In this document: positions 6,790-36,142 of the stretch, piece by piece
Position numbering within the stretch: the first letter of the stretch is position 1
Layout of the letters: the number at the start of each line of letters is the position of its first letter
Source: Planctomycetota bacterium
Lineage (GTDB): Bacteria > Planctomycetota > DG-23 > DATKVD01
Length of the DNA: 36,142 nt
Assembly (NCBI GenBank): GCA_037439485.1
Contig: JBBIVY010000025.1
Location: 1-36,142, forward strand
Direction of reading: 5' to 3'
The notes under the pieces: model-generated
Told to the model about the DNA's origin: nothing
Databases searched by the model: none
The model's input: the letters and a program-made list of their open reading frames with translations, nothing else
Made by a program: the position numbers and the translations under genes

Positions 6790-7388
6790 GGCTTGGCGCT
6801 CCCGGTATCGGCAAACTCGACCTTGCGATAGGACACGGCCCCGTCGGCGACGGAGGCGAAGTAAAGCTCGACGAGGCACTGGAACTCGGCGGTGAGGCTG
6901 CGGCCGACTTTGCGCAACTGCTCGATCTGGTGCTCGGCGATGGTCTTGCCCGTGGCGAGGTGCGCGAGTGTGGACAGGGCGTTCGAGTCCGTGTAGGCCC
7001 CGCAGCCGGAATGGGCGACGCAGATGATGCGCTTGATGTTCTTCGATTCGACCATGGCCTCGACGGCCCAGCGCGCCACCTTCTCGTGCTTGGGCAGCAC
7101 GTCGGGCAGGGCCAGCCACTGCACGCCGCCCGGCACGGCCATGAGTTGCCAGCGCGAGACCTTGAGCCCCTCCTCGACGAAGAGGAGGGTGTGCGGGAGG
7201 TAGCGCGAGTCGCCGCAGGTGATGACGAGGCACTCGGGCCGGTCGTCCGCGAAGGGGAGCGAACTTTTGTAGACCGGCTCGCCCTCGACCGGCGGGGCCC
7301 CGGCGAGATGCTCCTTCATCACCTGGGCGGCCTTGTCCTTGAGGCGCTGCGCGACCCCGGAAAGATACTCGGACGCTTTTTCTGCCAT
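6786..7388 (-). CDS. Beta-class carbonic-anhydrase-like protein, first gene of the flotillin operon
   Basis: Cys-x-Asp-x-Arg (ITCGDSRYLP) and His-x-x-Cys (VAHSGCGAY) signatures typical of beta-CAs. GGGGGA RBS 6 nt upstream of the ATG. Confidence 0.5.
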   Translation of the reverse strand: MAEKASEYLSGVAQRLKDKAAQVMKEHLAGAPPVEGEPVYKSSLPFADDRPECLVITCGDSRYLPHTLLFVEEGLKVSRWQLMAVPGGVQWLALPDVLPKHEKVARWAVEAMVESKNIKRIICVAHSGCGAYTDSNALSTLAHLATGKTIAEHQIEQLRKVGRSLTAEFQCLVELYFASVADGAVSYRKVEFADTGSAKP

Positions 7389-7427
7389 GGCCCGTCCCCC
7401 GGACAGTGCTGGAAAGCGAATGCTGAG

Positions 7428-7457
7428 AGATTACCGAGAACGGACTTCGTCTGTCAA
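7428..7457 (-). promoter_or_regulatory. Candidate sigma70-like promoter for the beta-CA-like/NfeD/flotillin operon. -35 TTGACA, 18-nt spacer, -10 TAATCT on the minus strand.
   Basis: Reverse complement of 7389-7498 reads ...tttcTTGACAgacgaagtccgttctcggTAATCTctc... about 35 nt upstream of the start codon. Confidence 0.4.
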
Positions 7458-7498
7458 GAAATATTGTCGCTTAATGGAGTCTGCCCAAGCCCTTGCCC

Positions 7499-9772: not shown

Positions 9773-9842
9773 GTCAGGACCTCCTGTCGTGGTGTGCTCA
9801 AAAATGTCCCCGGATAACTGCTTCGCACCGGGGAACCATGAC

Positions 9843-9862
9843 GGGCACGGCGTGCCGTGCCC
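9843..9862. repeat. 20-bp near-perfect palindrome GGGCACGGCGTGCCGTGCCC, copy 2. About 70 bp upstream of the secreted-protein start codon.
   Basis: Read directly from the sequence. Single central G/T mismatch. Coordinates +/-1. Confidence 0.7.
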
Positions 9863-10124
9863 CTACGATACAAGTCGATCGCGGTGGTCGCATTGAACAT
9901 GCTACCCCCGCCGGGAGGCGCCGTCCAGTCCAGATATTCGTTTCTGCGTTCCTGCGTCGACGCTATGAGGCGATGGCGATGTGATCGCGATCCGGCCTTG
10001 CGGACAAGAAAAGCAGGCGACGGCACAAGTCATTGCTGCGGGGGATGTTACGCTCGGTATTTCTGCGGCGCTTCTCCGCTTCACGCGACGATTAAGACGG
10101 CATGGAAATATTACACATTCTGTG

Positions 10125-10153
10125 TTGACAGGCCGCAAAACGACAGGAATAAT
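10125..10153 (+). promoter_or_regulatory. Candidate sigma70-like promoter for the LtaS-family gene. -35 TTGACA, 17-nt spacer, -10 AATAAT.
   Basis: tgtgTTGACAggccgcaaaacgacaggAATAATactgg. A small inverted repeat ACACAttcTGTGT overlaps the -35 element. Confidence 0.35.
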
Positions 10154-10200
10154 ACTGGTGCGCGGTCTGGTCTCAACGTGTCGTGCCGGGGGGACAGCCG

Positions 10201-12165
10201 ATGAGAAGATTCGGCCTGGCGCAGTGCCGCGACTTCATCCGCAGAGCACTGGGATCGAGGTTCGGAGGACTTTACGTCTTCGGCGTCCTCTTTCTCGGCG
10301 CCTCGCTGCTCCTGCGTTTCGCCCTGTGCCTCCGTTCCCTCGCCCTCATCGACACCACGCCTTCCGTCCTGGCGCACATGTTCCTCGTGGGCATGATCTA
10401 CGACGCGGTCACGTTCTTCTACTGCGCGCTTCCGGCGGCGATCTTCCTGCTTGTCGTGCCGGATCGCATCTACCGCTCGAAGGCGACGCGAGTCATCGTC
10501 AACACGACTTACTTCCTGGCGGTCTTCGCGCTGGTCTTCGACGTCATCGCGGAGTGGCTCTTCTGGGGCGAGTTCGGCACGCGCTACAACTTCGTCTCCG
10601 TCGACTACGTGGCCTACGTTCACCAGTTTACCGGCAACCTGGTCCAGGCGCTGCCGATGCCGATCCTCATCGGCATACTCATCGCCGGGGTGACGATCGT
10701 CTTCTTCGCGACGCGGCCGCTGCTCGTCCGCACGTTCGACTCCGTCAGCTCCTTCCGCCAGCGCCTGCGGCCGGCCGCCGTGTTTGCGCTGGCGCCGGCG
10801 GTGTCCGTCTTCTTCGTCAACCTCTCGCTCGCGGAGATCAACGGCAACCATTACAACAACGAGCTTTCGAAGAACGGGGTATACAGCTTCGCTGCGGCCA
10901 TCCGCTATAACGGCGCCACGTGGAGCGCGGACTACCGGACCATTTCCTCGCCGGAGGCGTGGGTGCGGCTCGAACGGAGGCTCGAATCGCAGGGGGCGCG
11001 CTTCCCCGCGGGCGCCGGAGCGCGGGACCCGCTGCATGAGGCGGGGCCCGTCGGCCCCGAGACGCCCCATAACGTCATCGTCGTCGTGATGGAGAGCATG
11101 GGCGCCGATTTCGTCGGGGCCTGTGGCGCGACGGGGGGCCTGACGCCGAACCTCGACCGGTTGGCGGCGGAAGGAGTATTCTTCGCGGACTTCTACGCGA
11201 CGGGCACGCGCACCGACCGGGGCCTGGAGGCGGTGATCGAGTCGCTGCCGCCGACGCCGGGGCGCTGCACGATCAAGCGGGAGATGACGCCCGACCCGAA
11301 CGCCCTCGGCGTGATTCTGCGTCAGCGCGGCTATCGGCCGGTGTTTGTCCTGGGCGGCGACCCGACCTTCGACAACATGGGCAATTTCTTCGTCGCCAAC
11401 GGCTTCGATGTCGTCGGGCGCGACCGGTTCCGGTCGTCGGAGGTGACCTGCGAGACGGCGTGGGGCGTGTGCGACGGAGACCTCTTCGGCCGCATCGTGC
11501 GCGAGTGCGACGAGATGCACGCGAAGGGCGCGCGCTTCTGCGTCGCGTCGCTGACCTGCTCCAACCACCAGCCGTTCGTGGCGCCCGGCATCGCGCCGGA
11601 GAACCGGACGCGCGAGGCGGTGGTGAAGTATTCCGACGCCTGTGTCGGCGAGTTCATCCGCCAGGCGCAGTCGAAGCCCTGGTTCAACGACACGCTCTTC
11701 GTCTTCGTGGCCGACCACCAGGCCAACCGCGCGTGCCTCGCGGACATCGCGCCCGAGATGTTCCGCATCCCCGCCATTGTCTATGCCCCGAAGCTCGTCG
11801 CGCCGAGGCGCGTGGAAGGGATCGCCGGCCAGATGGACCTGATGCCCACGGTGTTGGGGCTCATGAAGTTCCGCTACCAGAGCCGGTTCTTCGGGCACGA
11901 CGTGTTGGCGCAGTCGGGCGGGGGATGCGCGGCGGTGTCCAACTACCAGGACTTCGGATGGGTTACGGGCGACCGCTTCGTGCTGATGCGCGCCGAGAAG
12001 CGCGCGAACGTCTATCGCGTCGACGCCGCAGGCGAGTTGCGCGGTTGCCCGCAGGACCCCGAGCTTATCCTCGACGCCACGTCGCTCTACCAGACCGCTG
12101 CGGAATACCTCGACAGCCGGTTCATCCTCCCCGGCGCCCCCTCCGCCCACGCCTCGCGGCGGTAG
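10201..12165 (+). CDS. LTA-synthase/sulfatase-family membrane phosphotransferase (LtaS/MdoB/OpgB-like). N-terminal multi-TM domain and C-terminal sulfatase domain.
   Basis: ATG at 10201 preceded by GGGGGGA. The track's GTG at 10183 is an alternative start. 5 or more N-terminal TM helices followed by HNVIVVVMESMGADF / GTRTDRGLEAV sulfatase-type motifs. Confidence 0.8.
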   Translation: MRRFGLAQCRDFIRRALGSRFGGLYVFGVLFLGASLLLRFALCLRSLALIDTTPSVLAHMFLVGMIYDAVTFFYCALPAAIFLLVVPDRIYRSKATRVIVNTTYFLAVFALVFDVIAEWLFWGEFGTRYNFVSVDYVAYVHQFTGNLVQALPMPILIGILIAGVTIVFFATRPLLVRTFDSVSSFRQRLRPAAVFALAPAVSVFFVNLSLAEINGNHYNNELSKNGVYSFAAAIRYNGATWSADYRTISSPEAWVRLERRLESQGARFPAGAGARDPLHEAGPVGPETPHNVIVVVMESMGADFVGACGATGGLTPNLDRLAAEGVFFADFYATGTRTDRGLEAVIESLPPTPGRCTIKREMTPDPNALGVILRQRGYRPVFVLGGDPTFDNMGNFFVANGFDVVGRDRFRSSEVTCETAWGVCDGDLFGRIVRECDEMHAKGARFCVASLTCSNHQPFVAPGIAPENRTREAVVKYSDACVGEFIRQAQSKPWFNDTLFVFVADHQANRACLADIAPEMFRIPAIVYAPKLVAPRRVEGIAGQMDLMPTVLGLMKFRYQSRFFGHDVLAQSGGGCAAVSNYQDFGWVTGDRFVLMRAEKRANVYRVDAAGELRGCPQDPELILDATSLYQTAAEYLDSRFILPGAPSAHASRR

Positions 12166-12175
12166 GAAATCATCC

Positions 12176-13420
12176 TCAATCGTGCGTCTCGCTGATTGCG
12201 GGCAGGTCGCGGCCGCGGAGGATGAACCACATCGTGCCGATGATGCCGAAGCCGAACGCGACGAAGAGATTGACGGACGGGCCCGCCATCCAGAGGAGCG
12301 CGCCCCCGAACGCGGCGACGGCCACGATGACGTCGCGGACGAGGTAATAAAGGCCGAACATCGCGGCCTTCCTTCCTTCGGGGGCAAGGTCCATGATGAG
12401 GGCCTTGCGCGTCGGCTCCCCGAATTCCTTGAGTCCCCGCAGCACGAACGCCGCCACGAGCGGCCAGAACGACCGCGTGAAGAAGAGCACCAGCGGGAAG
12501 AGCGTGAAGAATCCGAACGTGATCGCCACGAACGGTTTCTTGCCGAACCGGTCGGCCATGTGCGCCACGGGGATGTAGCAGAGGACGGCCGTGACGTGCT
12601 CGACGGCCGAAAGCACGCTGAAGAGGAACGCCGCGTGGGCGACCGTGGCGGCGCCGCCGTCGGGGGCGAGGTTCTGCGTGACCCAGAGCACGACGAAGGA
12701 GTCGGGGATGCGCTCGCAGAAGCGGATGAGGATGTCGGAGGCGAGGAGGGCGCGAAGGTTCGGGTTCATCTGGCGCCAGAGGGCGAGGGGATTGGGCTCG
12801 GCCTCTTTCTTGCGGCGGCCGTCGTCCTCGATGAGCAGTTGCTGCATGGCGACCGCGACGAGGGCGAAGGCGAGCGCGGCGATGAAGGCGTAGCGGACGC
12901 CCGCGTCGACCCCCCAGATGGCGATAAACGTTCCGCCCATGAGCGGCCCGAGCATCTTTGGGATGCGCCGCACGAGCGCCTGGAGCGAGACGCCCATCGT
13001 GCGTTTGCTCTTGGGCACGACGAGCGCGATGAGTTCCATCGTCGCCGGCAGCGAGATGGCCGACCACGAGATGAAGAACGCCGCGCCCAGCAGCACCGCC
13101 CACCACGTGTGGACGAAGATGACGATGAGATAGCCGACCATCGAGAGGAGGTTGAAGACGAGCAGCGCGCGCTTCGTGCCGAGCCGGTCGCTCAGATAGC
13201 CGCCCGGGAAGGAGTAGAGCGCGGACAAGAGGTCGTCCATCCCCGCGAGGATGCCGATGGACAGGGCCACCGTCGCGCCGGTGGCCAGATCCTTGAGATA
13301 GAGCGGCAGAAACCTCTCCGCCATGTGCTCGCCCATGCCCACCAGGATGACCATGGCGAGCATCCCCACCATGCTGCGCTTGAGGGCAAGGTAATCGATG
13401 ATTCGTCGGGACAGTGTCAT
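12176..13420 (-). CDS. MFS transporter
   Basis: Start re-assigned to the internal ATG (MTLSRRIIDYL...). About 12 predicted TM helices. MFS motif-A-like GGYLSDRLGTKRAL. Convergent with the LtaS-like gene across a 10-bp gap. Confidence 0.75.
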   Translation of the reverse strand: MTLSRRIIDYLALKRSMVGMLAMVILVGMGEHMAERFLPLYLKDLATGATVALSIGILAGMDDLLSALYSFPGGYLSDRLGTKRALLVFNLLSMVGYLIVIFVHTWWAVLLGAAFFISWSAISLPATMELIALVVPKSKRTMGVSLQALVRRIPKMLGPLMGGTFIAIWGVDAGVRYAFIAALAFALVAVAMQQLLIEDDGRRKKEAEPNPLALWRQMNPNLRALLASDILIRFCERIPDSFVVLWVTQNLAPDGGAATVAHAAFLFSVLSAVEHVTAVLCYIPVAHMADRFGKKPFVAITFGFFTLFPLVLFFTRSFWPLVAAFVLRGLKEFGEPTRKALIMDLAPEGRKAAMFGLYYLVRDVIVAVAAFGGALLWMAGPSVNLFVAFGFGIIGTMWFILRGRDLPAISETHD

Positions 13421-24952: not shown

Positions 24953-27595
24953 GTGCGGCGATTCCTTCTCATTGTAGTCATCGCGGTTTCATCGTGCGGC
25001 GTCACGTTTGCGCAGGCGCCCGATCGGAGCGGGATCGCCCCGGAGGCGCTGGCCGACGCGAAGAAGGCGCTCGCGGACTACGAGGCGCGGGTGGCGAAAC
25101 TCCGCGGCTCGTCCGACGCGAACGTGAAGGCGTTTCTTCCCACGGCCGAGTATCTCTGCATCGGCCTGCGCAATTTCATCGACCCCGCGCCCTGGGAGGC
25201 GGCGAACGGCCAGCCGCTCATCGCGCCTGCCGACGACCAGCGATACGCGAAGGTGGGGCGCATCTCCTTCGTGAAGGGGATTGCGTCGGAACTCGACAAG
25301 ATTCTGCCGGAACTCGAAGCCGGCAGGAACCCGTACGTGAAGTACTCGGGATCGACGCTCGTCGCCTATCGCTCATCTTTGGACGGCCGGCTCCTTGCGG
25401 TGCGCATGGCGATTCCGGCGGGTTACGACCCGGCGAAGTCGTACGGGTTGAAGTATCAGAACAGCTCGTCAAGCGGCGTCACGGGAAACGCCCAGCGGCC
25501 TCTCTATATTCGCTACGCCGATTCCACACGGGCCGACGTTCTCTCGGCCGTTATCAGCGATCGAGGCGAATGCAATTACGGCAACGACATTCACGAGCAG
25601 GAGACGGTGGAGGCGTTGGGCGAACTGATTCGGATGTTCCACGTCGACCCGGCGCGGATCGTGAAGGAAGGCGGGTCGAAGGACGGATACACCTCCGTCT
25701 CCATCGCCATCCATTACCCGCACCTGCTGGCGGCGACCTTCGCCGACACGGCGAACTCCCTGCCGGACGGATCGATCGATTCGAGGCCTCTTCCGTGCTA
25801 TGCGCCGTTCCGCGACCAGATGAACGCGTTCATCATGGCCGACAACCTCTACGACCTGCCGTCGGTGATTGCCACCGGGTTCGACGGCGACCACCTGAAC
25901 ACGCTGACGATGGGGGCGCTGCTGGAGAAGCTCAACGCCCCGAACAAGATCCTCCGGATCGTGACCGAGGACGGCCACGGAGTCTCGGGCCGGTCGTATG
26001 CGGAGTTCGGGAAATGGCTGCCCGAGCAGCGGCTCGACCCGTATCCGAAACGCGTCTACGTCAGCACGAGCACGCTGCGCTACAACAAGTTCTACTGGGT
26101 GGAACTCGACCGCCTGGAGCACGAGAACCGGTTCGCGCGGATGCGCGTGGACGCGCTTGCCGGCAATCGTATCGAGGTCGAAACGCATAACGTCGTGCGT
26201 TTCTCGCTGGTGACGCTCGACAAGCTCGTGGATGCGGGGAAGCCGGTGGCGCTGGAGATTGACGACCAGCGGCTCGCGCCGGTGATGCCCGCGGCGGGGG
26301 AACTGCACTTCGCCCGAAAGGATGGCAAGTGGGCCGCCGCCGCGACGCGCTCCGACGGCGGGGTCGTGAAGAAGCACGGGCTCGCCGGCCCGATGATGGA
26401 CGGGTGGATTCAGCCCTGTCTTCACGTCATCGGCACGCTCGGCGGCGACGAGGAGACGGCGCGCCTGCGTGAGATGATGATGACGGAAGTGCGGTTCCTG
26501 CGCAGCGAGACCTGCGGCTTCCGCTCGATGGATCACGCCGTCAAGCTCGACACGCAGGTGACCGCCCAGGACATCCGCGACCGCAACCTCATCCTCTGGG
26601 GGAGCGAACGGACGAACAGGCTCATCCGCGACGTGAACGGGAAGCTGCCGGTGCGGCTCGACGGGAACAAGGTCGTCGTTGGCTCACGGAGCTATGAATA
26701 TGACGACGTCGGCCTCGCGCTCATCTACCCGAATCCGCTCAACCCCGAACGCTACGTGATGGTCTTCTCCGGCAACACGTGGATGGCCCAGGAGGCCGGC
26801 TGGATCAGCCAGTGGAGCGACGACAAGGCGGTGAAGACGGTCAACTACTTCAAGATCGGCAACGGATACCCGATGCTGCCGGACTACTTCATCTTCCGGC
26901 AGAACCGGAAGGGCCTGTCGCCTACCTGGGGCGCGACCTTTGCCAACCCGGCTACGAGCGTCCTCGAAGGCGGGTACTTCGACGCCGATTGGAAGCTGAC
27001 GGACGACGACGCCTTCGCGTGGCGGAACCCGGCGCCTCAGACGAATGCGCCGCTGTCCGTGCCGAAGTGCGTGCGTCCCGCCGTGCCCGCGCGCGCGATC
27101 GGGGCCTCGACGGACGAGAAGCCCCCGGTGATGACGGCGACGCCCGGCACGCTGAAGCTCGGCGCGGCGGAGGAGAAAGACGGCCTCCTCTATCACTTCT
27201 CGGCGGCGCATCGGGGCCGGTTCTTCTACCGCGAGTTTGGGTCGGTCTTCACGAGCCCGGAGAAGCTCATCGTCCTTGAAGTGCGGGTGACGAACAAGTC
27301 CGCGGGCAAGGCGTTCGTCTATCCCGCGCTCAAGACGGAGGACGCGCCCGCGCTGGAACTCGCCGGAAAGCAGGTGAAGCCTTTCGCCCTGCGCACCGAG
27401 CAGGCGTTCCCGGCGACGGACCCGGGCGAGGGATTCCGGATCGTCTTCCTCTATCGCGCGGACGCGGCGAAGGCCGACAAGCTCGTTGTGAAGGGCGTCG
27501 GCCTCAAGAAGGATCTCGCGCTTTCACTCTCCGGCGCCGACCTCGTCGATGGAGACTACAACCCGGATCGCCTGACGGAAGGCGCGACGTGGTAG
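24953..27595 (+). CDS. Secreted protein of unknown function, 880 aa. Paralogue B, with an extra C-terminal domain of about 250 aa.
   Basis: GTG start 10 nt after paralogue A's stop, with a GGGGG RBS. Signal peptide MRRFLLIVVIAVSSCGVTFAQA. Conserved blocks are shared with paralogue A. Confidence 0.7.
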   Translation: MRRFLLIVVIAVSSCGVTFAQAPDRSGIAPEALADAKKALADYEARVAKLRGSSDANVKAFLPTAEYLCIGLRNFIDPAPWEAANGQPLIAPADDQRYAKVGRISFVKGIASELDKILPELEAGRNPYVKYSGSTLVAYRSSLDGRLLAVRMAIPAGYDPAKSYGLKYQNSSSSGVTGNAQRPLYIRYADSTRADVLSAVISDRGECNYGNDIHEQETVEALGELIRMFHVDPARIVKEGGSKDGYTSVSIAIHYPHLLAATFADTANSLPDGSIDSRPLPCYAPFRDQMNAFIMADNLYDLPSVIATGFDGDHLNTLTMGALLEKLNAPNKILRIVTEDGHGVSGRSYAEFGKWLPEQRLDPYPKRVYVSTSTLRYNKFYWVELDRLEHENRFARMRVDALAGNRIEVETHNVVRFSLVTLDKLVDAGKPVALEIDDQRLAPVMPAAGELHFARKDGKWAAAATRSDGGVVKKHGLAGPMMDGWIQPCLHVIGTLGGDEETARLREMMMTEVRFLRSETCGFRSMDHAVKLDTQVTAQDIRDRNLILWGSERTNRLIRDVNGKLPVRLDGNKVVVGSRSYEYDDVGLALIYPNPLNPERYVMVFSGNTWMAQEAGWISQWSDDKAVKTVNYFKIGNGYPMLPDYFIFRQNRKGLSPTWGATFANPATSVLEGGYFDADWKLTDDDAFAWRNPAPQTNAPLSVPKCVRPAVPARAIGASTDEKPPVMTATPGTLKLGAAEEKDGLLYHFSAAHRGRFFYREFGSVFTSPEKLIVLEVRVTNKSAGKAFVYPALKTEDAPALELAGKQVKPFALRTEQAFPATDPGEGFRIVFLYRADAAKADKLVVKGVGLKKDLALSLSGADLVDGDYNPDRLTEGATW

Positions 27596-27617
27596 TCCTG
27601 CACTTGGAGGGATGGTT

Positions 27618-29138
27618 ATGAGACGCAGCCTGGTGTTGTTGACGTTCGTGCTGGTTTTCGGTCTTGCGGGAGCCGCCTCATCCGACGTAACTCTTGCCCC
27701 GCTCTTTAAGGACGGCATGGTCCTGCAGCAGGGGATGAAGTGCCCCGTGTGGGGAACCGCCGCGCCGGGGGAGGACGTGGTCGTTGAGATCGGCGGGAAG
27801 AAGTTCTCCGCCAAGGCCGACGACAAGGGCGAGTGGATGGTCCGCCTCGACGCGATGAATCCGGGCCCGGCACTCGAAATGAGCGTCACGGGGAAGAACG
27901 CGGTGAAGATTTCGGATGTCCTCGTGGGCGAGGTCTGGGTTTGCTCGGGCCAGTCGAACATGGAGTTTTCCACGAGGAACGCCGTCAACGGGCCGGAAGA
28001 GGTCAAGGCGGCGGACTATCCGGGCATCCGGCTCTTCAACGTGCCCAACCGCGTGTCGGACAAGCCCGAAGCGCAGTGCGGCGGCCGGTGGATCACGTGC
28101 TCCCCGACGACGGCGGCCGGATTCACGGCGGTGGGGTATTTCTTCGGGCGCGAGCTTCACAAGCAACTCAACGTCCCGGTCGGCCTCATCCAGAGCGACT
28201 GGGGCGGCACTCCCGCGGAGGCGTGGACGCCTCGCACCGGGTTCCAGGGCGATCCGACGCTGAAAGGCATTCTGGAACGCTGGGACAAAGCCGTTGCCGA
28301 CCATCCCGACGCGAAGAAGAAGTTCGACGACGCGATGGAGGCCTGGCGCAAGGACGTGGAGAAGGCGAAGGCCGAGAACCGCAAGGAGCCGCCGCGTCCG
28401 GGGCCGGTTCAGGGCAGTTGGACGTTCAGTTCGCCGACGGGCCTCTATAACGGCATGATCCAGCCGCTCGTGCCTTACGGCATCCGCGGGGCCATCTGGT
28501 ATCAGGGCGAGGCGAACGCCGGCCGGGCGGAGCAATACCAGGCGCTGCTTTCCGCGATGATCGGCTCCTGGCGCTCGGCGTGGGGCGAAGGCGATTTCCA
28601 CTTCGGCATCGTGCAGCTTGCGAATTTCATGGCCGTGAAGCCCGACCCGTCCGACAGCGGCTGGGCGCGTCTCCGCGAGGCGCAGGCGTTCACCGCCGAG
28701 AAGGTCGCGAACTGCGGCCTGGCGCTCGCCATCGACATCGGCGACGCGAAGGATATCCACCCGAAGAACAAGCAGGAAGTCGGCCGGCGCCTCTCGCTCT
28801 GGGCGCTGGCGAAGGTCTACGGGAAGACCGTGGAATACTCCGGCCCGGTCTATGAGTCGATGAAGGTCGAAGGCGACAAGATTCGCATCGCGTTCACGCA
28901 CCTCGGAGGCGGCCTCGAATCGAAGGGCGGAGAGCCGGTGAAGGGATTTGCCATTGCGGGCGATGACGGCAAGTTCGTCTGGGCCGACGCGAAGATCGAC
29001 GGCGGCTCCGTTGTGGTTTCGAGCGCCCAGGTGGCGAAGCCCGTTGCGGTGCGCTACGCGTGGGCCGATAACCCCGTGTGTAATCTCTACAGCAAGGACG
29101 CCCTGCCCGCGGTGCCGTTCAGAACGGACGGCAGGTAG
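27618..29138 (+). CDS. Sialate O-acetylesterase (SASA/SIAE family SGNH-type carbohydrate esterase), secreted
   Basis: VWVCSGQSNMEF catalytic GQSNM motif. C-terminal YAWADNPVCNLYSKDALPAVPFRTD typical of SIAE. GGAGG sits 7 nt before the ATG at 27618; the track's earlier ATG at 27612 is too close to the RBS. Confidence 0.8.
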   Translation: MRRSLVLLTFVLVFGLAGAASSDVTLAPLFKDGMVLQQGMKCPVWGTAAPGEDVVVEIGGKKFSAKADDKGEWMVRLDAMNPGPALEMSVTGKNAVKISDVLVGEVWVCSGQSNMEFSTRNAVNGPEEVKAADYPGIRLFNVPNRVSDKPEAQCGGRWITCSPTTAAGFTAVGYFFGRELHKQLNVPVGLIQSDWGGTPAEAWTPRTGFQGDPTLKGILERWDKAVADHPDAKKKFDDAMEAWRKDVEKAKAENRKEPPRPGPVQGSWTFSSPTGLYNGMIQPLVPYGIRGAIWYQGEANAGRAEQYQALLSAMIGSWRSAWGEGDFHFGIVQLANFMAVKPDPSDSGWARLREAQAFTAEKVANCGLALAIDIGDAKDIHPKNKQEVGRRLSLWALAKVYGKTVEYSGPVYESMKVEGDKIRIAFTHLGGGLESKGGEPVKGFAIAGDDGKFVWADAKIDGGSVVVSSAQVAKPVAVRYAWADNPVCNLYSKDALPAVPFRTDGR

Positions 29139-29153
29139 GAGGATAGAGGCGCC

Positions 29154-30461
29154 GTGTTCCGGAATCGTCCGCCGAAGATCGCGGTCATCGGCGCCGGCTC
29201 GTCGAGCTTTTCGAGCCTGCTGGGCGATCTCGTCTCGTGCCGGGACCTCGACGGCGCGCGCGTGGCGCTCGTGGACATCGACGCCGAGGCGGTGGACCTG
29301 GCGGAGCGCCTGGGCCGGCGGATGTCGCGCGAGTGGGGCCGGGGCACGCAGGTCTCGGCCTATGACGACCGGTGCGAGGCGCTCAAGGACGCGGACTTCG
29401 TCGTCCTTCTCGTCGGCGTGGGCGGCGTCAAGGCGTGGAAGCAGGACGAGGCCATTCCGGCGAGGCACGGTTTCCACGGCCATTCCTGCGACACGACCGG
29501 CGCCGGCGGGCTCTTCCGCGGCCTCCGGGTGATTCCCTCGATCCTCGACGTCTGCCGCGACGTCGAGCATGTCGCCCCGCGCGCGCTCGTCATCAACTAC
29601 TCGAACCCCGTGACCGCCGTCTGCCGCGCGATCCGCAAGGCATCGTCGGCGAACGCCGTGGGCCTGTGCACGGCGGGGTTCCCTCCGACGCAGGTCGCGC
29701 GGTTTCTGGACATCCCCCGCGATCGCGTGGACGTCATCTCGGCGGGGCTCAACCACTGCGTCTGGGCGCTCAAGGTCTTCATCGACGGCGAGGAGAAGAC
29801 GCAGTATTTCTACGACGCCGTGCGCAAACGCGAGGCGAAGTCGTTCTACGCGTCGAGCGTCGAGATCCTCGACCTCTTCGGCGTCTGGCCGATGCCCGGC
29901 GCGGGGCACGTCGCGGAATTCTTCCCGTGGTTCTTCGGCCCCGAGAAGGACGGGCGCGACGACGGGCGCTACCCGATGCGCGAGGACCGCATCGACTGGG
30001 CCTCCCGTCTCAAGCGCGAGCGCGAGCGCCTTCGCCGCATCCACGCCCGGGCCAACGGCCTCGAACCCCTCGGCGGCCCCTCGGAGGAGAGTCCCGCGGA
30101 CGCCGTGCGGATGATGGCGTCGATTTGGCATAATCGCCCGGCGCGCTTCTACGCCGACGTGCCCAACGGCGGGACCGTGCCGAACCTGCCGATCGAGTCG
30201 ATTGTGGAGGTGCCGGTCATCGCCGACGCCTCCGGCGTGCGCGCGGTGGAGGTCGGGCCGCTGCCGCCGCAGGTCGCGGGGTTCATGCAGGCCCGCTGGG
30301 CCTATAACGAAATCCTGGCCGACGCCGCGATTCAGAAGTCGAAAGCACTTGCATTAAGGTGCCTCGTCGCGGATACTAACACGACGAGCATCAGCCGGGC
30401 GAGGGCCTGCGTCGACGCGATGTTCCGAGCGCAGCGTGAGTTCCTTGCCGGCTACAAGTGA
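29154..30461 (+). CDS. Glycoside hydrolase family 4 (NAD+/divalent-metal-dependent glycosidase)
   Basis: N-terminal KIAVIGAGSSSFS Rossmann motif. Overall GH4 architecture (..NYSNPV..CTAG..GLNHCVW..). GTG start 4 nt after GAGG. Confidence 0.8.
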   Translation: MFRNRPPKIAVIGAGSSSFSSLLGDLVSCRDLDGARVALVDIDAEAVDLAERLGRRMSREWGRGTQVSAYDDRCEALKDADFVVLLVGVGGVKAWKQDEAIPARHGFHGHSCDTTGAGGLFRGLRVIPSILDVCRDVEHVAPRALVINYSNPVTAVCRAIRKASSANAVGLCTAGFPPTQVARFLDIPRDRVDVISAGLNHCVWALKVFIDGEEKTQYFYDAVRKREAKSFYASSVEILDLFGVWPMPGAGHVAEFFPWFFGPEKDGRDDGRYPMREDRIDWASRLKRERERLRRIHARANGLEPLGGPSEESPADAVRMMASIWHNRPARFYADVPNGGTVPNLPIESIVEVPVIADASGVRAVEVGPLPPQVAGFMQARWAYNEILADAAIQKSKALALRCLVADTNTTSISRARACVDAMFRAQREFLAGYK

Positions 30462-30487
30462 AGCGGCGGGATTTCAAGGAGGTCTCC

Positions 30488-30643
30488 ATGACGTTGAAGC
30501 GGCTTTTCTTCGCGGCGGCCCTCCTGGGGATGGCCCTGGCGTGGATGGGTTGCCAGTCGGACTCGTCCAACAGCAAGTCCGGCGGCACGTTGCCCCCTCA
30601 TTACGTGAAGGGGGAGGGCTATGACCCCGGCCCCGGTAAATAG
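30488..30643 (+). CDS. Candidate small lipoprotein, 51 aa
   Basis: AAGGAGG lies 5 nt upstream of the ATG. MTLKRLFFAAALLGMALAWMGC signal peptide with a lipobox (MGC), then a Ser/Gly/Pro-rich tail. The track's longer 61-aa form starts inside the GH4 stop region with no RBS. Confidence 0.4.
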   Translation: MTLKRLFFAAALLGMALAWMGCQSDSSNSKSGGTLPPHYVKGEGYDPGPGK

Positions 30644-30709
30644 TTAGTTCCCTCCATCGTGTCGGGGCGGTTTTGCCCTTCGGCTCAAAAATTATGTCTT
30701 TCTCCCTTT

Positions 30710-30826
30710 GACCTGATATGATAACCGTGTGAGGCTCTCCTTGCCCGGTGGGCGTTAGGGTGTCGTGACAACACCATTCTAACAACCCCACCGGCGGGAG
30801 ACCTCACACGGTTATCGTATCAGGTC
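30710..30826. repeat. About 115-nt near-perfect extended hairpin/palindromic element: an outer stem of about 30 bp with one G-U and one bulge, an inner 9-bp stem and a nested apical stem-loop. Candidate structured ncRNA or MITE-like/recombination scar element.
   Basis: Left arm gacctgatatgataaccgtgtgaggctctcc (30710-30740) is the reverse complement of ggagacctcacacggttatcgtatcaggtc (30797-30826) with 1 mismatch and a 1-nt bulge. Inside, cccggtggg pairs with cccaccgg, and gttagggtgt...acaccattctaac forms an apical hairpin. Confidence 0.6.
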
Positions 30827-30889
30827 AGGCCGGGCGCCCGCCTCGTCTCGGCGGAAGAGGACGTCGCAACACCAAGCCTGCCGGAGTTT

Positions 30890-31391
30890 GAGCTCGAAGA
30901 ACGGGTCAACTTCGAGCTATCGGTCCTTGAAATCCCGCTCTTCGCCCACCCGGCGGCGATTGTGCGCCAATCCTTCGGTTGTTATCCTGAGCGAAGCGAA
31001 CGATCTACGCGGACTTGCGAGAAAGCCCTCGTGGCATCCGGCGGCTCTCCCCGAATTGCCGGCCGGATTCCTCGGCCCGCTGAAGCGGGTCTCAGAATGA
31101 CAGCTCTAGCGGAGGAGTTGCCGCGGTTGCTCGGCAAGCGCGGCCGCATGTTGCGGGATATTGGCCACCACCCGCGGCGCCCCGACGAAGAACGGAGAGA
31201 TCATGCAGTTCGTCACCCTCGAAGACGAGACCGGCGTCTTCGAGGTCACGCTCTTCCCGAATATCTATTCCCGCGTCCGCCGGCTCCTGAGCGATGGCGG
31301 CCCATATCTCGTCGAAGGCCGCGTTGAGGAGCAATACGACTCGCTCTCGGTCAATGCCTGGCGGTTCGAGCAAACCGGTGCTGAGGAGTGA
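30890..31391 (+). pseudogene. Frameshifted C-terminal remnant (about the last 150 codons) of a DnaE-family DNA polymerase III alpha / error-prone DnaE2 (ImuC). The 5' about 3 kb of the gene is absent.
   Basis: Frame 0 (31135-31391) reads ...LATTRGAPTKNGEIMQFVTLEDETGVFEVTLFPNIYSRVRRLLSDGGPYLVEGRVEEQ..., which resembles the C-terminal OB-fold region of DnaE/DnaE2 (F-x-TLEDETG motif). A different frame upstream (30890-31100) reads ...FELSVLEIPLFAHPAAIVRQ..., resembling the preceding ...SxHPL... segment. There is no start or RBS, and in-frame stops occur at 31098 and 31107. Confidence 0.45.
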
Positions 31392-31504
31392 ATCGGAAGC
31401 CCAGACGGCCGGGGCGTTGCGAGGGAGGGGGGGCAACGGAAAATAATGATTTACGCAGCGCGCGCCGGAGGCTATGATTCGTGCGTCGATAAGAATTTGT
31501 GTTC

Positions 31505-31581
31505 GGGCCCGTAGCTCAGTTGGTTAGAGCGGCGGACTCATAATCCGCTGGTCGCTGGTTCGAGTCCAGCCGGGCCCACCA
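31505..31581 (+). tRNA. tRNA with anticodon CAU. Most similar to tRNA-Ile2 (lysidine-modified, AUA-decoding, ileX-like); elongator tRNA-Met cannot be excluded by eye. CCA is encoded.
   Basis: Cloverleaf GGGCCCG/UA/GCUC-AGUUGGUUA-GAGC/G/GCGGA-CUCAUAA-UCCGC/UGGUC/GCUGG-UUCGAGU-CCAGC/CGGGCCC-A-CCA. Near-identical in arm sequences to E. coli ileX as recalled from memory. Confidence 0.9.
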
Positions 31582-31598
31582 AGTTGTCGGGAGTCGTC

Positions 31599-32366
31599 GT
31601 GATCGAAGACCTGAGTTCCATCCTGCGCTCGTGGCCCTACGGCGAGGGGGCCAACGCCCGGAAGATCGTCGGCGAAGACGGCCGCGAGAAGGTGCAGCTC
31701 CGCGTCGTCATCGAGGGGCTGCACGGTATCCTGCAGTTCGACTGCGACGGCCGCCCCGATGGCGCCCGCCCGCACGAGCGGGAGTTCGCGCTCGACCACT
31801 TCGAGGACCTCGCCGAGACCCGCCGCGCCGCGGGAGGCCCCATGTTCCGCCTGAGCCGCAAGCAGGCCGCGGAGCTTTTCGAGGAAAGCTCCATGATCTA
31901 CCAGCGATACGTCCTCCTGCTGCAGATGAACGACTATGACCGAGTTATCCTCGACACCGAGCGCAACATGCGCCTCTTCCGATTCGTCCACGAGCACGCT
32001 GCGCAGGCGGAGGATCGGGATAACCTGGAGAAGTGGTGGCCCTACGTTCTTCGCGTTCACTGGACCGCGCGGACGCTCAAGGACCTGGAGGCCGAGCGGT
32101 TCGACGCGGCGCTGGAGTCGGTGGCCGAGGCGCGAAAGCTCCTCGCAGAGATGTCGCCTCAGGAGAACGAGGTCTTCCAGGCGGAGATGAAGCGATCGAA
32201 TGAGGCGCTCGACGATCTGGAGAAGACGATCGCCGAGCACCGTCCAGTGAGCGAACTGGAGCAGCTCGAACGCGAGAAGGCCGAGGCTATCAAGGCCGAG
32301 GATTACGAGCGCGCCGCGACGCTCCGGGATCGCATCGCGGAGCTTCGCCGGGCGAGCGAGGCGTAG
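31599..32366 (+). CDS. Hypothetical cytoplasmic protein with a C-terminal UvrB/UvrC (UVR) interaction motif
   Basis: GTG start 5 nt after GGGAG, only 17 nt after the tRNA 3' end. C-terminal ...IKAEDYERAATLRDRIAELRRA matches the UVR-motif pattern. Confidence 0.6.
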   Translation: MIEDLSSILRSWPYGEGANARKIVGEDGREKVQLRVVIEGLHGILQFDCDGRPDGARPHEREFALDHFEDLAETRRAAGGPMFRLSRKQAAELFEESSMIYQRYVLLLQMNDYDRVILDTERNMRLFRFVHEHAAQAEDRDNLEKWWPYVLRVHWTARTLKDLEAERFDAALESVAEARKLLAEMSPQENEVFQAEMKRSNEALDDLEKTIAEHRPVSELEQLEREKAEAIKAEDYERAATLRDRIAELRRASEA

Positions 32367-32534
32367 GGGCGTGGTGTACTAAAACGCGCCACGAGCCTTC
32401 GGCTGCGGAAATTGCTGGCCGTCGAGCGTCGCGAATCACACCGGATTTCCCGCCTCCCTGTGGTCAAAGCGGCCGGAAATATGCCCCGAAACGCGCGAAT
32501 CGTCGGATTCCGGTCATTTCCGGGCACAATATGA

Positions 32535-32561
32535 TTGCATCCTCCGCGCGCGTTTTATAAT
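32535..32561 (+). promoter_or_regulatory. Candidate promoter for the beta-helix gene. -35 TTGCAT, 15-nt spacer, -10 TATAAT.
   Basis: gaTTGCATcctccgcgcgcgtttTATAATggc, about 90 nt upstream of the ATG. The spacer is short. Confidence 0.3.
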
Positions 32562-32652
32562 GGCTCATGGTCAATTGCGTGTGGAAGGGCCCGCCGGGAC
32601 CTCGCGTATCCGCGGCCAGGAAATTGTGCACCCTTTGCAAGGAGTCCGTGCC

Positions 32653-34767
32653 ATGTTGAGGAAGATCGCCTGGATGTCCGTCGTCGCGCTGGTTGCCAAC
32701 GTGTCGCTCGCCTGGGCTGAGCCGCCCGTGGTGACTGCGGCGAAGTTCGACGCCTTCGCGCGCGCCTACTTCACGGCCGTCGCCGAGCCCGACATGTGGA
32801 AGACGTTCGGGTCCGACTTCAAATTCGTCACTACGCCGGAGAGCAACTGGCGCCGGGCCTCGACGACCTCCGCGGTGGTCGCCTTCGAGACGAACCTCCC
32901 CGCGAAGTCTTACGTCCTCTACGGGATGCTGCCGGGCGCGTATGCCTACGCGACGCCCGTGGAGACGCGGAGCACGTTCATCCACGTTCAATATCTCCGC
33001 TACCTCCAGCCGGGCACGACGTATTACTACAAGATATTCACGTTCGACGATCGCGGGTTGCTCATCATGAGCGACGAGTCGAGCTTCCAGACCACCGCCG
33101 TAGTGCGGGGCAAGGTGATCGAGGTTCCGGGCACGCTGCAGGGCCCGCCCTACCTCCTCGATCAGGAGGGCGCCACGTACGTCGTCACGCGCGATATCGT
33201 GGCCGATTCCACGGCGTTCAACATCACGAAGAGCGGCATCACACTGGACCTCGGCGGCAACACGGTCATCTATAACAACAAGGCTGGCGTCGCGGACCCG
33301 AACGCGAACGAGGCGTTCTATGGCCCGCAGGGCGCGGGCGGCCCGTGCGGCATCCGCACCGCCGATGGCCTGAAGGGAGTCAAGATCTTCAACGGCAAGG
33401 TGGAGCAGGGCGCCGGGATGGGCGTCTCCAAGTTCAACGGGTATTACCCCATCTTCCTGCGCAGGCCGATGGGTCTGGAGATGGCGGGCGTCACCGTGAC
33501 TTACGCGGGCGGACAGGTGTCGGGCGTCAAGGTCAACAACGGCGGCGACGGCCTCGACCTGCACCACAACGTGGTTTATGACCAGGGCACGGTGCTCTTC
33601 GACCGGCATCACGGCTCGCACGCGTTCGAAGTGGATACCTCGAAGGCCGCGGCGACCGTGACGAAGGTCCATCACAACCTCGTCCTGCGCGCGCGTCACT
33701 GCGGCATCACGGCGTCCGAGAAGCAGGAGATCTACTCCAACGAGATCTACGTCGACTCGTACGCGACGAACTCCTACGGCATCCAGTACACGAGCCTGAC
33801 GACGGCGGAGAAGCTGGCGATCCATAACAACAAAGTCTTCGGCACCGGCTTCCACCCGATCGGCATCGGCGCCGGGCAGGGATGGTCGGACGTGCAGGTC
33901 TTCGAGAACTTCGTCCTCATGCAGGGCACGACGTTCGAGTGGCGCTGGGCGGGCGGCGAGGGCGGCGGCGACGCCGACGCGGCCGACAAGTCCGGCGTGT
34001 TTCCGCTGAACGGCATCCGTCTGCAGAAGCCGCGCGAGAACGTCCGGCATTCGGGCAACACGGTGATCGTCAAGGGCTTCGGCGTGGGCTGCAACATGCG
34101 CGGTCTCTGGCTCATGCCCGACTCGGGCTCGCCGTCGAGCGTGACGTTCATGAATAACCGCGTGAAGGTCGTGTCGATGGACGGCGTCGCCAGCGGCTCG
34201 GCGGTGGACGCCGGCGGTTGCGGCCTTCAGGCGGGCAAGCCGCATGTTAGCCTCGAAGGCAACACGATTGAGAGCAACCTCTGCAACGTTCAGTTCGGCG
34301 ATCATTATGGGCACGGCGGTCCGTACATCTTCACCAGGAACACGCTCGTGCAGTTGGGAGCGGACCCGCGCTACAAGACGATCCGCGTGGGCTGGGGCGG
34401 TGCGGCCTGGGATTCGTTCGACCACCAGTTCGCCGATACGGCCTTCCAGGGCGGGGCGTCCTTCGACAAGATCTCCTGGGACGGCGCGTCGAGCAAGAAG
34501 TATGAGTTCACGGTGGCCTGGACGCTGACCGTTCAGACCGATCCGGGCGCGATGGTGACCATCAAGAACAACGCCGGCAAGACGGTCGCCGCATACGCCG
34601 CCGACGCCAAGGGACTCTACCAGGCCGTCGTCACGCAGGGCACGTTCTCGTCCGCCGGCAACCGCATGGACACGCCCCACACGGTGGTTGTGAGCAAGGG
34701 CATGGCCAAGCCGGTCGAGAAGACGGTCGTTGTCGACCGCGCGCAGACGGTGCTGATCGGGCTCTGA
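32653..34767 (+). CDS. Secreted right-handed parallel beta-helix (pectin-lyase-fold) repeat protein, 704 aa
   Basis: AAGGAG RBS. Signal peptide MLRKIAWMSVVALVANVSLAWA. Recurrent short beta-helix rungs (..HHNVVY.., ..HHNLVL.., ..IHNNKVFG.., NTVIVKGFGVG..). Confidence 0.75.
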   Translation: MLRKIAWMSVVALVANVSLAWAEPPVVTAAKFDAFARAYFTAVAEPDMWKTFGSDFKFVTTPESNWRRASTTSAVVAFETNLPAKSYVLYGMLPGAYAYATPVETRSTFIHVQYLRYLQPGTTYYYKIFTFDDRGLLIMSDESSFQTTAVVRGKVIEVPGTLQGPPYLLDQEGATYVVTRDIVADSTAFNITKSGITLDLGGNTVIYNNKAGVADPNANEAFYGPQGAGGPCGIRTADGLKGVKIFNGKVEQGAGMGVSKFNGYYPIFLRRPMGLEMAGVTVTYAGGQVSGVKVNNGGDGLDLHHNVVYDQGTVLFDRHHGSHAFEVDTSKAAATVTKVHHNLVLRARHCGITASEKQEIYSNEIYVDSYATNSYGIQYTSLTTAEKLAIHNNKVFGTGFHPIGIGAGQGWSDVQVFENFVLMQGTTFEWRWAGGEGGGDADAADKSGVFPLNGIRLQKPRENVRHSGNTVIVKGFGVGCNMRGLWLMPDSGSPSSVTFMNNRVKVVSMDGVASGSAVDAGGCGLQAGKPHVSLEGNTIESNLCNVQFGDHYGHGGPYIFTRNTLVQLGADPRYKTIRVGWGGAAWDSFDHQFADTAFQGGASFDKISWDGASSKKYEFTVAWTLTVQTDPGAMVTIKNNAGKTVAAYAADAKGLYQAVVTQGTFSSAGNRMDTPHTVVVSKGMAKPVEKTVVVDRAQTVLIGL

Positions 34768-34794
34768 TTCGCAGGATGGCTGCGATTTCCGCGC

Positions 34795-34832
34795 AGGGGC
34801 ATTCCGACTTCCCGGGATGCCCCTGTTCTTTT
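34795..34832 (+). terminator. Rho-independent terminator. 8-bp perfect stem AGGGGCAT/ATGCCCCT with a 14-nt loop, followed by TTCTTTT.
   Basis: Lies 28 nt after the beta-helix gene stop. Stem, loop and T-run all read directly from the sequence. Confidence 0.6.
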
Positions 34833-34843
34833 GGGGTGGGGCG

Positions 34844-35524
34844 TCAGGCCGCTCGCGCGAAGACCCTCAACGCGTAGACCCTGTCGCCATACTTGCTGAG
34901 CCTGATGGGCAAGCCGCCGGGCCCGAGAGGGTCGTTGGCGAGATAGTCGGGCCCGTCGGTGCCGACGACGAGGACCCAGTGTTGGGTCCGGCCGCGGATG
35001 AGCACCTTGACCATCACGGGGTTGCCGAGGGCGAGGTTGCGTTCGAGAATCTCCGTCCGCGCGGGGCCGCGGTAGACTTCGCGGATGCGTCCTTGGGAGT
35101 ATTCCGCCAGCTTGTCCCAGACGAGCAGGTCGCCCGACTGGTATCCGCCATGCGTGCTGAGCCAGCGGTTGAGCCGGCCCGGGTCGGTGTCGACGCCGAA
35201 GTGGGCGAGCATCATCGATGCCGACACCACCGCGCAGCCGCCCCGGCCCACGCGCGAGCTGGAGCCGTCGAGCGGGTCGGTCGACCAGCGCGGGTCCGAC
35301 TCCTTGAAGCTCGGGGCCGCGATGCGGATGGGCGGGCCATACGGGGCGCTGCGTTTCGTCGGCGCCGTCGGCTCTCCCGGGCCCTTCGCGAAATAGACGA
35401 CCGCCGTCGCCAGAAGGGCGAGGATGATGAAGCCCACGAAAACGTGTCTGATCCGCCGACCTGTCATGAGTTCCCGCCCCGCGGTGCCGCTTCCCACAGC
35501 ATACTTCGGCATTTGGGCGGGCAA
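34844..35524 (-). CDS. Stand-alone papain-like cysteine peptidase of the C39-like family (Peptidase_C39_2-like). N-terminal signal peptide or TM anchor.
   Basis: GRGGCAVVSASMMLAHFG (Cys in a C39-like context) and a downstream RTQHWVLVVG (His in an H-x-VVL context). N-terminal hydrophobic HVFVGFIILALLATAVVYFA. The start may instead be the internal MTGRR. Confidence 0.5.
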   Translation of the reverse strand: MPAQMPKYAVGSGTAGRELMTGRRIRHVFVGFIILALLATAVVYFAKGPGEPTAPTKRSAPYGPPIRIAAPSFKESDPRWSTDPLDGSSSRVGRGGCAVVSASMMLAHFGVDTDPGRLNRWLSTHGGYQSGDLLVWDKLAEYSQGRIREVYRGPARTEILERNLALGNPVMVKVLIRGRTQHWVLVVGTDGPDYLANDPLGPGGLPIRLSKYGDRVYALRVFARAA

Positions 35525-35663
35525 TCTTGCGCCGGAGATTTCGCCTCAGTAGGGCGTTTCGTAGCGCGTCGCCAGTCCGAGCACCCAATTCCTGTGTCGG
35601 AGGTAGAGTGATTTGAATGCCTCCCGGTAATCCCGGACATGGTGTTGCTGGAGCGGTCGTGAG

Positions 35664-36134
35664 CTACATTGCATCAGGGCCGTTGGACGCCTTCACGAAT
35701 CTCACAATATCGTCAATACGAGTGTGAAGATCAAGCACGTTGAGGTCGGCTCTCGTCTCTACCACCTTGCGTGAAATGCGGACCTTGTCCGGTTCGCCGT
35801 CGAATCCCTCTATCATGCTGAGCGGGTCGGCATACTTGGTTGCAACTCGCAGCCCTGTGGCGGTCTTGTGGATATCCGTGACTGCGGCCGCGAGAACATC
35901 GTGAGGAACATAGTTCTCTACACAACAGCCGTCCGTAACCCACGCGAACCCGGGGGCGCTCTTGAACTCCTCGATTACTCGCATCTTGGTCGCATTGAGG
36001 CTATCCTCATGGCTATGCTTGTCGCTATCAATCAGAATGCAGATGTTCCGGTTCAACCGACGCAACGAGATGAAATCAAGGACCTCGGGATCCTCCGCTG
36101 AAAGATGACTGAGTAGCCTGCCGCCGTAGAACAT
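35664..36134 (-). CDS. Hypothetical protein in low-GC DNA, probably the C-terminal part of a longer protein that runs off the window. Contains a DxD (IDSDKH) motif reminiscent of Toprim/OLD-family nuclease domains.
   Basis: ORF in about 52% GC DNA. There is no stop between the ATG at 36134 and the window edge, so the true start may lie outside. ICILIDSDKHSHEDS motif. Confidence 0.35.
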   Translation of the reverse strand: MFYGGRLLSHLSAEDPEVLDFISLRRLNRNICILIDSDKHSHEDSLNATKMRVIEEFKSAPGFAWVTDGCCVENYVPHDVLAAAVTDIHKTATGLRVATKYADPLSMIEGFDGEPDKVRISRKVVETRADLNVLDLHTRIDDIVRFVKASNGPDAM

Positions 36135-36142
36135 GATTGAGT

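Follow-up and report, generated by a model that had tools for sequence, protein, structure and literature searches.

DnaE2/ImuC is the error-prone C-family polymerase of the LexA-regulated imuA-imuB-dnaE2 mutasome, which is known from Caulobacter and Mycobacterium (PMC6511836, PMC10421592). In addition, Timinskas and Venclovas (2019) described ImuA-less mutasome variants that consist of lexA, a standalone imuB-C, and an active PolY gene, with or without dnaE2 (PMC6511836). These variants include a group with lexA, imuB-C, and PolY in Planctomycetes, and others couple a Y-family polymerase with DnaE2 (PMC6511836).

In this study, we analyzed a stretch of 36,142 nucleotides from a Planctomycetota bacterium (GCA_037439485.1, contig JBBIVY010000025.1), hereafter called the window. 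We found that the interval from 30827 or 30837 to 31391 is the dead 3′ end of a DnaE2-like, SOS-type polymerase gene, which keeps about 145 of about 1,010 codons. Like DnaE2/ImuC, it has a DnaE C-terminus with an OB fold and ends right after it, with no tau-binding domain, and its relatives are about 1,000 aa long and lie beside lexA and a Y-family polymerase gene. However, the copy in the window is fragmentary, and the relatives fall below the error-prone cut-off, have no imuA, and are accompanied by a Pol IV-like Y-family partner. As for the ImuA-less variants, the gene order in one relative (L163) agrees with the published description (PMC6511836). However, the only ImuB-C candidate in this relative is a 102-aa ORF with a sub-threshold match to DUF6504, and no cassette gene is left in the window. 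DnaE1, the replicative Pol III alpha, belongs to the same superfamily, but the relatives differ from it by having no tau-binding domain, by scoring well below the DnaE1 cut-off, and by lying in LexA cassettes. Moreover, a replicative dnaE could not be lost. The DnaE2-like assignment of the remnant is reasonable, and the accurate label for the source gene is "DnaE2-like, SOS-cassette polymerase."

Identity and Extent of the Remnant

The remnant spans the last part of the HhH region, a linker that follows it, and the OB fold (table 1). The OB fold is found in the ORF 31161-31391 (MATTRGAPTKNGEIMQFVTLEDETGVFEVTLFPNIYSRVRRLLSDGGPYLVEGRVEEQYDSLSVNAWRFEQTGAEE), which matched the OB-fold family PF01336 (E = 1.5e-9; 38.1 bits against a cut-off of 27), and this OB fold is preceded by the conserved ...LG.y.s.HP... 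segment of DnaE C-termini. The matches in the PDB were Pol III alpha throughout. For instance, residues 1030-1122 of Thermus aquaticus Pol III alpha (3e0d/2hpi) aligned with the OB region and the segment upstream of it (E about 4e-5), and residues 967-1092 of 7pu7_A, a chain named only "DNA polymerase III subunit alpha," aligned as well. Furthermore, a tblastn search with the closest protein found (P0001) returned two collinear pieces in different frames. The first piece joined window 30827-31153 (frame of 30803) to residues 89-163 of P0001, with an insertion of 34 residues (E = 2e-17), and the second joined window 31155-31379 to residues 164-238 (E = 9e-40). Thus, the remnant is real, and the matches are far above chance.

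The initial annotation of this DNA had recognized the OB-fold peptide and, in another frame, a segment upstream of it, and had read both as a degraded, frameshifted 3′ remnant of a DnaE-family gene without its 5′ part. The peptide is confirmed by PF01336 and by the Pol III alpha alignments, the upstream segment by the first tblastn piece, and the degraded state by tblastn together with the DNA alignment to the closest relative. The check that it had proposed, tblastn of DnaE C-termini against the region 30850-31400, gave these significant alignments and mapped the frameshift. However, it had set the start of the remnant at 30890, and the homology begins at 30827-30837.

On the full-length 1017-aa protein of another relative (L164), the remnant corresponds to residues 869-1012. 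A complete gene carries the DnaE domains (PHP, the palm/thumb domain DNA_pol3_alpha, finger, and HhH) in one ORF; the remnant covers residues about 860-1012 only, and residues 1-868 of the L163 or L164 DnaE had no match anywhere in the 36-kb window. The stop codon of the remnant lies 8 codons past the aligned OB region, without a tau-binding C-terminal domain. Exact look-ups of the 76-aa OB ORF and of the ORF 32560-34767 returned no record. The remnant is an ordinary pseudogene fragment of a known kind of gene and not a new system, and it opens no new question for specialists. Its main value is for annotation: the proper label of the stretch is not OB-fold gene but pseudogene fragment of a DnaE2-like polymerase from an SOS cassette.

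Table 1. Features in and around the polymerase remnant (window coordinates)
Feature	Position	Strand	Description and evidence
Near-perfect palindrome, 119 bp, MITE-like	30709-30827		Repeat search; DNA fold; right end adjoins the remnant
Remnant segment 1	30827-30979	+	RPGARLVSAEEDVATPSLPEFELEERVNFELSVLEIPLFAHPAAIVRQSFG; about residues 860-905 of the 1017-aa relative; tblastn with P0001, L164; DNA alignment with L167
Lineage-specific extra sequence in the HhH-OB linker	30980-31102	+	Gap in protein and DNA alignments
Remnant segment 1, continuation	31103-31153	+	ALAEELPRLLGKRGRML; tblastn and DNA alignment with L167
Single extra C, +1 frameshift	31154	+	Between ...GKRGRML and GILATTRG...; window TTGCGGGATA against CTG-GGGATA in L167
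Remnant segment 2, OB-fold domain and native stop codon	31155-31391	+	GILATTRG...RFEQTGAEE*; PF01336, Pol III alpha in the PDB, tblastn
Sigma-70-like promoter of the downstream tRNA	31450-31478	+	TTTACG-17-TATGAT; outside the remnant; -10 aligns with TATAAT in L167
tRNA, anticodon CAT	31505-31581	+	Met by ARAGORN; conserved downstream neighbor of the polymerase gene

Ancestral Position of the Gene

The nearest tails, sought in a collection of species representatives, were 60-73% identical and belonged to Planctomycetota. The closest relative is the contig L167, the source of P0001, which is 87% identical to the window in the OB part. Its tail is uninterrupted and extends over at least 238 codons to the contig edge, and the same CAT tRNA follows 78 nt after the polymerase tail. 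This contig (ENA ERZ9284063 NODE_28759) opens with 45 nt of Illumina TruSeq adapter (nt 1-45), so the N-terminus of P0001 (MLFRS...) is an artefact. In addition, the polymerase gene of three other relatives (L083, L084, and L085) lies upstream of a homologue of the window ORF 32560-34767. Thus, the tRNA synteny and the gene order place the remnant at the ancestral position of the gene. The initial annotation had put the remnant directly upstream of a tRNA and had suggested a synteny comparison there, and both the position and the comparison bear it out in the closest relative. At this locus, the damage-inducible C-family polymerase of this Planctomycetota lineage is lost or at least broken, and close relatives keep it.

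The best Escherichia coli match of this tRNA is an annotated tRNA-Ile (84.4% over all 77 nt), and by this likeness it is probably a lysidine-dependent tRNA-Ile2(CAU). The genes in the 30 kb upstream of the remnant encode radical SAM, FtsX, SPFH, MFS, and sulfatase proteins, glycosyltransferases, YdjC, a SASA esterase, and GH4, and no integrase, transposase, or phage-like gene was found among them. Therefore, we rejected an integrative-island origin, in which the remnant would be the displaced 3′ end of a targeted gene. Meanwhile, no lexA or Y-family polymerase sequence was found anywhere in the 36-kb window.

Full-Length Relatives and Their Cassettes

The full-length genes in 105 fetched loci typically encode 990-1050 aa; their stop codon lies 0-50 codons past the OB fold (1-5 in the close clade), and they have no tau-binding C-terminal domain. 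Full-length relatives of 997-1028 aa end right after the OB fold. All DnaE domains are present in the relatives. On the 108-kb contig of L163, a cassette at 7313-13018 has the order lexA (203 aa), a 102-aa ORF, a Y-family polymerase gene (402 aa), and the dnaE-like gene (1005 aa), and the last two genes overlap by 44 nt. The order lexA, Y-family (IMS), and dnaE was found in L020 and L090, the order Y-family and dnaE in L011, L092, and L093, and the order lexA and dnaE in L005. The LexA linkage is thus a matter of gene order in the relatives only, with lexA upstream in four of them (L163, L005, L020, and L090).

The Y-family protein of L163 passes the NCBIfam cut-off for Pol IV (NF002677; 279.8 bits against 256) and retains the DxD and DD(A)YLD motifs. 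The partner is thus Pol IV-like and not a typical inactive ImuB. The RecA-like imuA is absent from the relatives' cassettes. In addition, the 102-aa ORF of L163 has a weak match to DUF6504 (E = 0.0033; 18.1 bits, below the Pfam cut-off of 24.2). The relatives' cassette resembles the ImuA-less mutasome variants and is not the canonical imuA-imuB-dnaE2 cassette.

The scores against the NCBIfam models were as follows. For the error-prone model NF004225, L163, L164, and L005 scored 670.6, 682.3, and 702.3 bits and did not pass its cut-off of 939, a threshold that is not meaningful for the fragment itself. For the DnaE1 model, the full-length relatives scored 761.6-774.5 bits against a cut-off of 1002, which was not passed either, and these scores are slightly higher than those on the error-prone model. 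The tail of the closest relative had its best NCBIfam match in the error-prone model (96.7 bits vs. 92.8 for DnaE1). The initial annotation had called the gene DnaE2/ImuC-like and had suggested an imuA-imuB-dnaE2 type of mutasome as its source. The first part is supported by an end 0-10 codons past the OB fold and by the LexA-linked relatives, but the type of cassette has to be corrected, for imuA is lacking and the partner is Pol IV-like.

Lesions in the Remnant

The DNA alignment of the window with the contig of the closest relative placed three lesions: the 5′ loss of about 868 codons, the extra C at 31154, and a longer inter-domain linker. The missing 5′ part amounts to about 2.6 kb. The extra C shifts the frame and is the reason for the two stops upstream in the OB frame; when it is removed, one open frame of 184 codons with zero stops results. 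The same C is present in the Logan contig L166 described below. The initial annotation had listed in-frame stops and the loss of about 3 kb of 5′ sequence. Both exist, but the two stops are only a by-product of one inserted base, and the loss is somewhat smaller than it had been estimated.

The extra linker sequence separates AHPAAIVRQ from ALAEELP, keeps the frame without any stop, and comprises 102-123 bases: its length is 123 nt with the imperfect inverted ends TGTTATCCTGAG and CTCAGAATGACA taken as its bounds, and the net excess over the closest relative is about 102 nt. We considered whether it is a known repeat and rejected this, as no further copies were found in the window or the fetched loci and its fold is not significant (z = -1.5). 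The insertion may predate the inactivation. The intact relative L085 tolerates a different insertion at the same place. That insertion (about 1330-1480 of L085) is REP-like, in frame, and about 40 residues long (...PPPGPLPQGEGG...), in a gene that is otherwise open. Another locus, L058, has a large insertion (1512-2104) in the same HhH-OB linker. The HhH-OB linker of this polymerase clade, with its different insertions from lineage to lineage, seems to be a place where small repeats can land and are tolerated. This hints that short insertions are tolerated, and build up, in the inter-domain linkers of these polymerases.

The dN values to five outgroups were consistently a little higher for the window than for the closest relative (e.g., 0.351 vs. 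0.267), in what is a relative-rate comparison only, since dS was saturated (above 1) and dN/dS was therefore dropped. In addition, the window has four private changes at otherwise invariant sites and the closest relative has two. These differences may be a weak sign of relaxed constraint on the copy in the window. The inactivation seems to be recent when set against the divergence of these lineages.

The Palindrome at the Breakpoint

The homology to the polymerase starts directly after the right arm of a palindrome, so that the breakpoint is at most 10 nt from the arm. The two arms (30709-30734 and 30802-30827; TGACCTGATATGATAACCGTGTGAGG) are 26 nt long and 96% complementary, with T30719 against G30817 as the sole mismatch. 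The stem extends to about 44 bp, and the DNA fold is -48.2 kcal/mol (z = -10.1). The initial annotation had noticed a hairpin at the probable breakpoint but had put it 100 bp upstream of the remnant; it does mark the breakpoint, and its right arm adjoins the first homologous codons. Here, the truncation of a gene coincides exactly with the edge of a small palindromic repeat, and the locus is a clean case of this kind.

Its terminal inverted repeats, small size, and lack of coding capacity are those of a MITE. The locus resembles IS/MITE-linked truncations in that a short palindrome with 26-nt terminal inverted repeats lies exactly at the breakpoint and contig breaks suggest other copies. However, it differs from them, as neither a parent IS or transposase nor a target-site duplication was found for this palindrome, whose flanks are CCCTT on the left and GGCCG on the right. 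If a deletion removed one flank, no duplication would be expected. The ends (TGACCTG...) presumably resemble those of IS3/IS407-type elements. The palindrome is single copy within the window, and no further copies of its arms were found in the window, in the 167 fetched loci, or in viral contigs. An Rfam scan of 30300-31800 reported the tRNA only and had no match for the palindrome.

A second long palindrome is found at 9730-9866 of the window, with 27-nt arms (GTAGGGGCACGGCATGCCGTGCCCGTC) that are 96% complementary and a spacer of 83 nt. It was rejected as a copy of the breakpoint element, for the two sequences are unrelated, and it may be another MITE/REP-type element.

Independent Assembly of the Locus

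The window was compared with two Logan contigs (L165 and L166) from the run SRR11582168. In Logan contigs, which are built with k = 31, each 31-mer occurs once by construction (PMC12424806). L165 equals window 25958-30737 with 100% identity and carries the GH4/lipoprotein flank and the left arm of the palindrome. L166 equals window 30787-36142, with two mismatches (at 33882 and 34401), and joins the right arm to the remnant. This independent assembly thus reproduces both junctions with the palindrome. The central 49 nt of the palindrome (30738-30786) are in neither contig. The first base of L166 lies exactly 30 nt left of G30817, where the arms have their sole mismatch, and L165 ends 30 nt past the flank base 30707. 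These break points fit the arithmetic for k = 31 and thus suggest that other copies in the sample have the same core, so that extension would have been possible only for k-mers with a private base or unique flank. By this arithmetic, and with one visible copy, the palindrome would be a multi-copy MITE-like repeat and a mobile one. Alternatively, the break may be a coverage gap at a strong hairpin and not a repeat, and the fragmentation of the Logan assembly of this organism into contigs of about 5 kb speaks for this possibility.

At its other end, L166 (5357-5386) runs 30 further bases, exactly k-1, past position 36142, which hints that the right end of the window is a real contig end or a repeat boundary. 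The 62-aa ORF that the gene caller reported on L166 is spurious.

Origin of the Truncation

Very probably, the locus holds a non-functional DnaE2-like remnant upstream of a tRNA, and its 5′ part was lost by deletion or recombination at the palindromic repeat. The palindrome would have caused the loss in the following way. A small palindromic repeat would have come into the variable linker before the LPxF/OB module, and the DNA 5′ of the element would then have been lost. The most likely cause of this loss is a deletion beside the element or a recombination of two copies, one of them downstream of the lipoprotein gene. A single element would have been left between an unrelated carbohydrate-utilization cluster and the last 145 codons, and the fragment, free of selection, would have gained the +1 insertion. 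By analogy with the relatives, lexA, the small ORF, and the Y-family polymerase gene may have been lost together with the roughly 868 polymerase codons.

The missing part could also have been moved and not destroyed. If recombination between copies of the palindrome inverted or translocated a segment, the 5′ 2.6 kb, lexA, and the Y-family gene would lie elsewhere in the genome, and the gene would still be dead. The break pattern at k = 31 suggests further copies of the element with which such recombination could occur, and the window gives no sign that the missing part was destroyed, as one window fits deletion, inversion, or translocation alike. However, this rearrangement has no positive evidence on its side: neither sequence for the N-terminal part of DnaE nor lexA nor a Y-family gene is present in the 36-kb window. 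It also counts against the rearrangement that IS/MITE activity leads more often to simple adjacent deletions, and we consider it rather unlikely. Another possibility is a mis-join in the assembly of the window, between a copy of the repeat that follows the lipoprotein gene and a copy that lies inside an otherwise full-length dnaE2-like gene. The real gene would then not be truncated, and the element and the frameshift would be its only interruptions. A repeated element is a classic site of mis-joins, and the link from arm to arm is given by the assembly of the window alone, the central 49 nt being those absent from both Logan contigs. However, the shared core is only about 109 nt, which is shorter than ordinary reads and than the large k of common metagenome assemblers and should therefore be resolved, and the arms are near-perfect complements of each other, as expected for a single element. 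Such a chimera is quite improbable, and even if it were true, the extra C at 31154, also seen in L166, would still disrupt the gene.

It has also to be considered whether the C-terminal module was kept as a small functional protein, a stand-alone OB-fold gene, after the catalytic part was lost. Copies with only the tail recur: besides the window, L002 (298-651), L168 (208-609), L044 (7935-8399), and L130 (630-1025) have no DnaE homology upstream, and their 5′ limits cluster at residues 869-902 of the 1017-aa relative. For example, L168 contains an uninterrupted 133-aa ORF with a GTG start and GGAG upstream, and L044, from a Gemmatales MAG, contains an uninterrupted 154-aa ORF with coding-like GC3 (0.93). 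In L002, only the OB fold is present, and its junction lies in REP-like repeats. However, the module is frameshifted in the window, where the longest OB ORF (76 aa, TTG start), or the 62-aa ORF of L166, lacks the first OB strand or strands, and the promoter scan found none upstream of the remnant. Furthermore, the neighbors of the L044 ORF are unrelated to DNA metabolism, and the loci were retrieved through a tail motif, so that only tails were recoverable and the ascertainment bias is strong. Finally, a search of 1.84 billion protein representatives with the 133-aa protein gave fragments of all lengths with no peak at 130-155 aa; a stand-alone OB family was rejected on this length and offset distribution, which has no distinct peak. 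A small functional protein at this locus is thus very improbable. A broader reading is that the last module (the LPxF segment and the OB fold, about 130-150 aa) is recurrently kept after catalytic loss, as at five independent loci, either as a stand-alone OB protein or because the two variable linkers are preferred sites of small palindromic repeats that seed one-sided deletions. The copy in the window would be a decayed example of it, but this reading is doubtful and we think it unlikely.

Additional Observations

Four Gemmataceae loci contain only the C-terminal half of the gene, with the finger, HhH, and OB regions: L114 (6206-7804), L124 (about 518-1882), L028 (about 154-1518), and L012 (about 124-1467). 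Their homology has a common onset at about residue 545, and their upstream sequences differ; L114 has a histidine kinase gene there, on the opposite strand. Such halves may represent a gene that is conserved in truncated or split form. Since broken copies of the accessory polymerase seem common in Planctomycetota, the case of the window is an ordinary one.

In addition, a perfect inverted match of 15 nt links the ribosome-binding region of the lipoprotein ORF (30466-30480; GCGGGATTTCAAGGA) with the remnant (30924-30938; TCCTTGAAATCCCGC). Such a match was obtained in 3% of shuffles, and it is probably due to chance.
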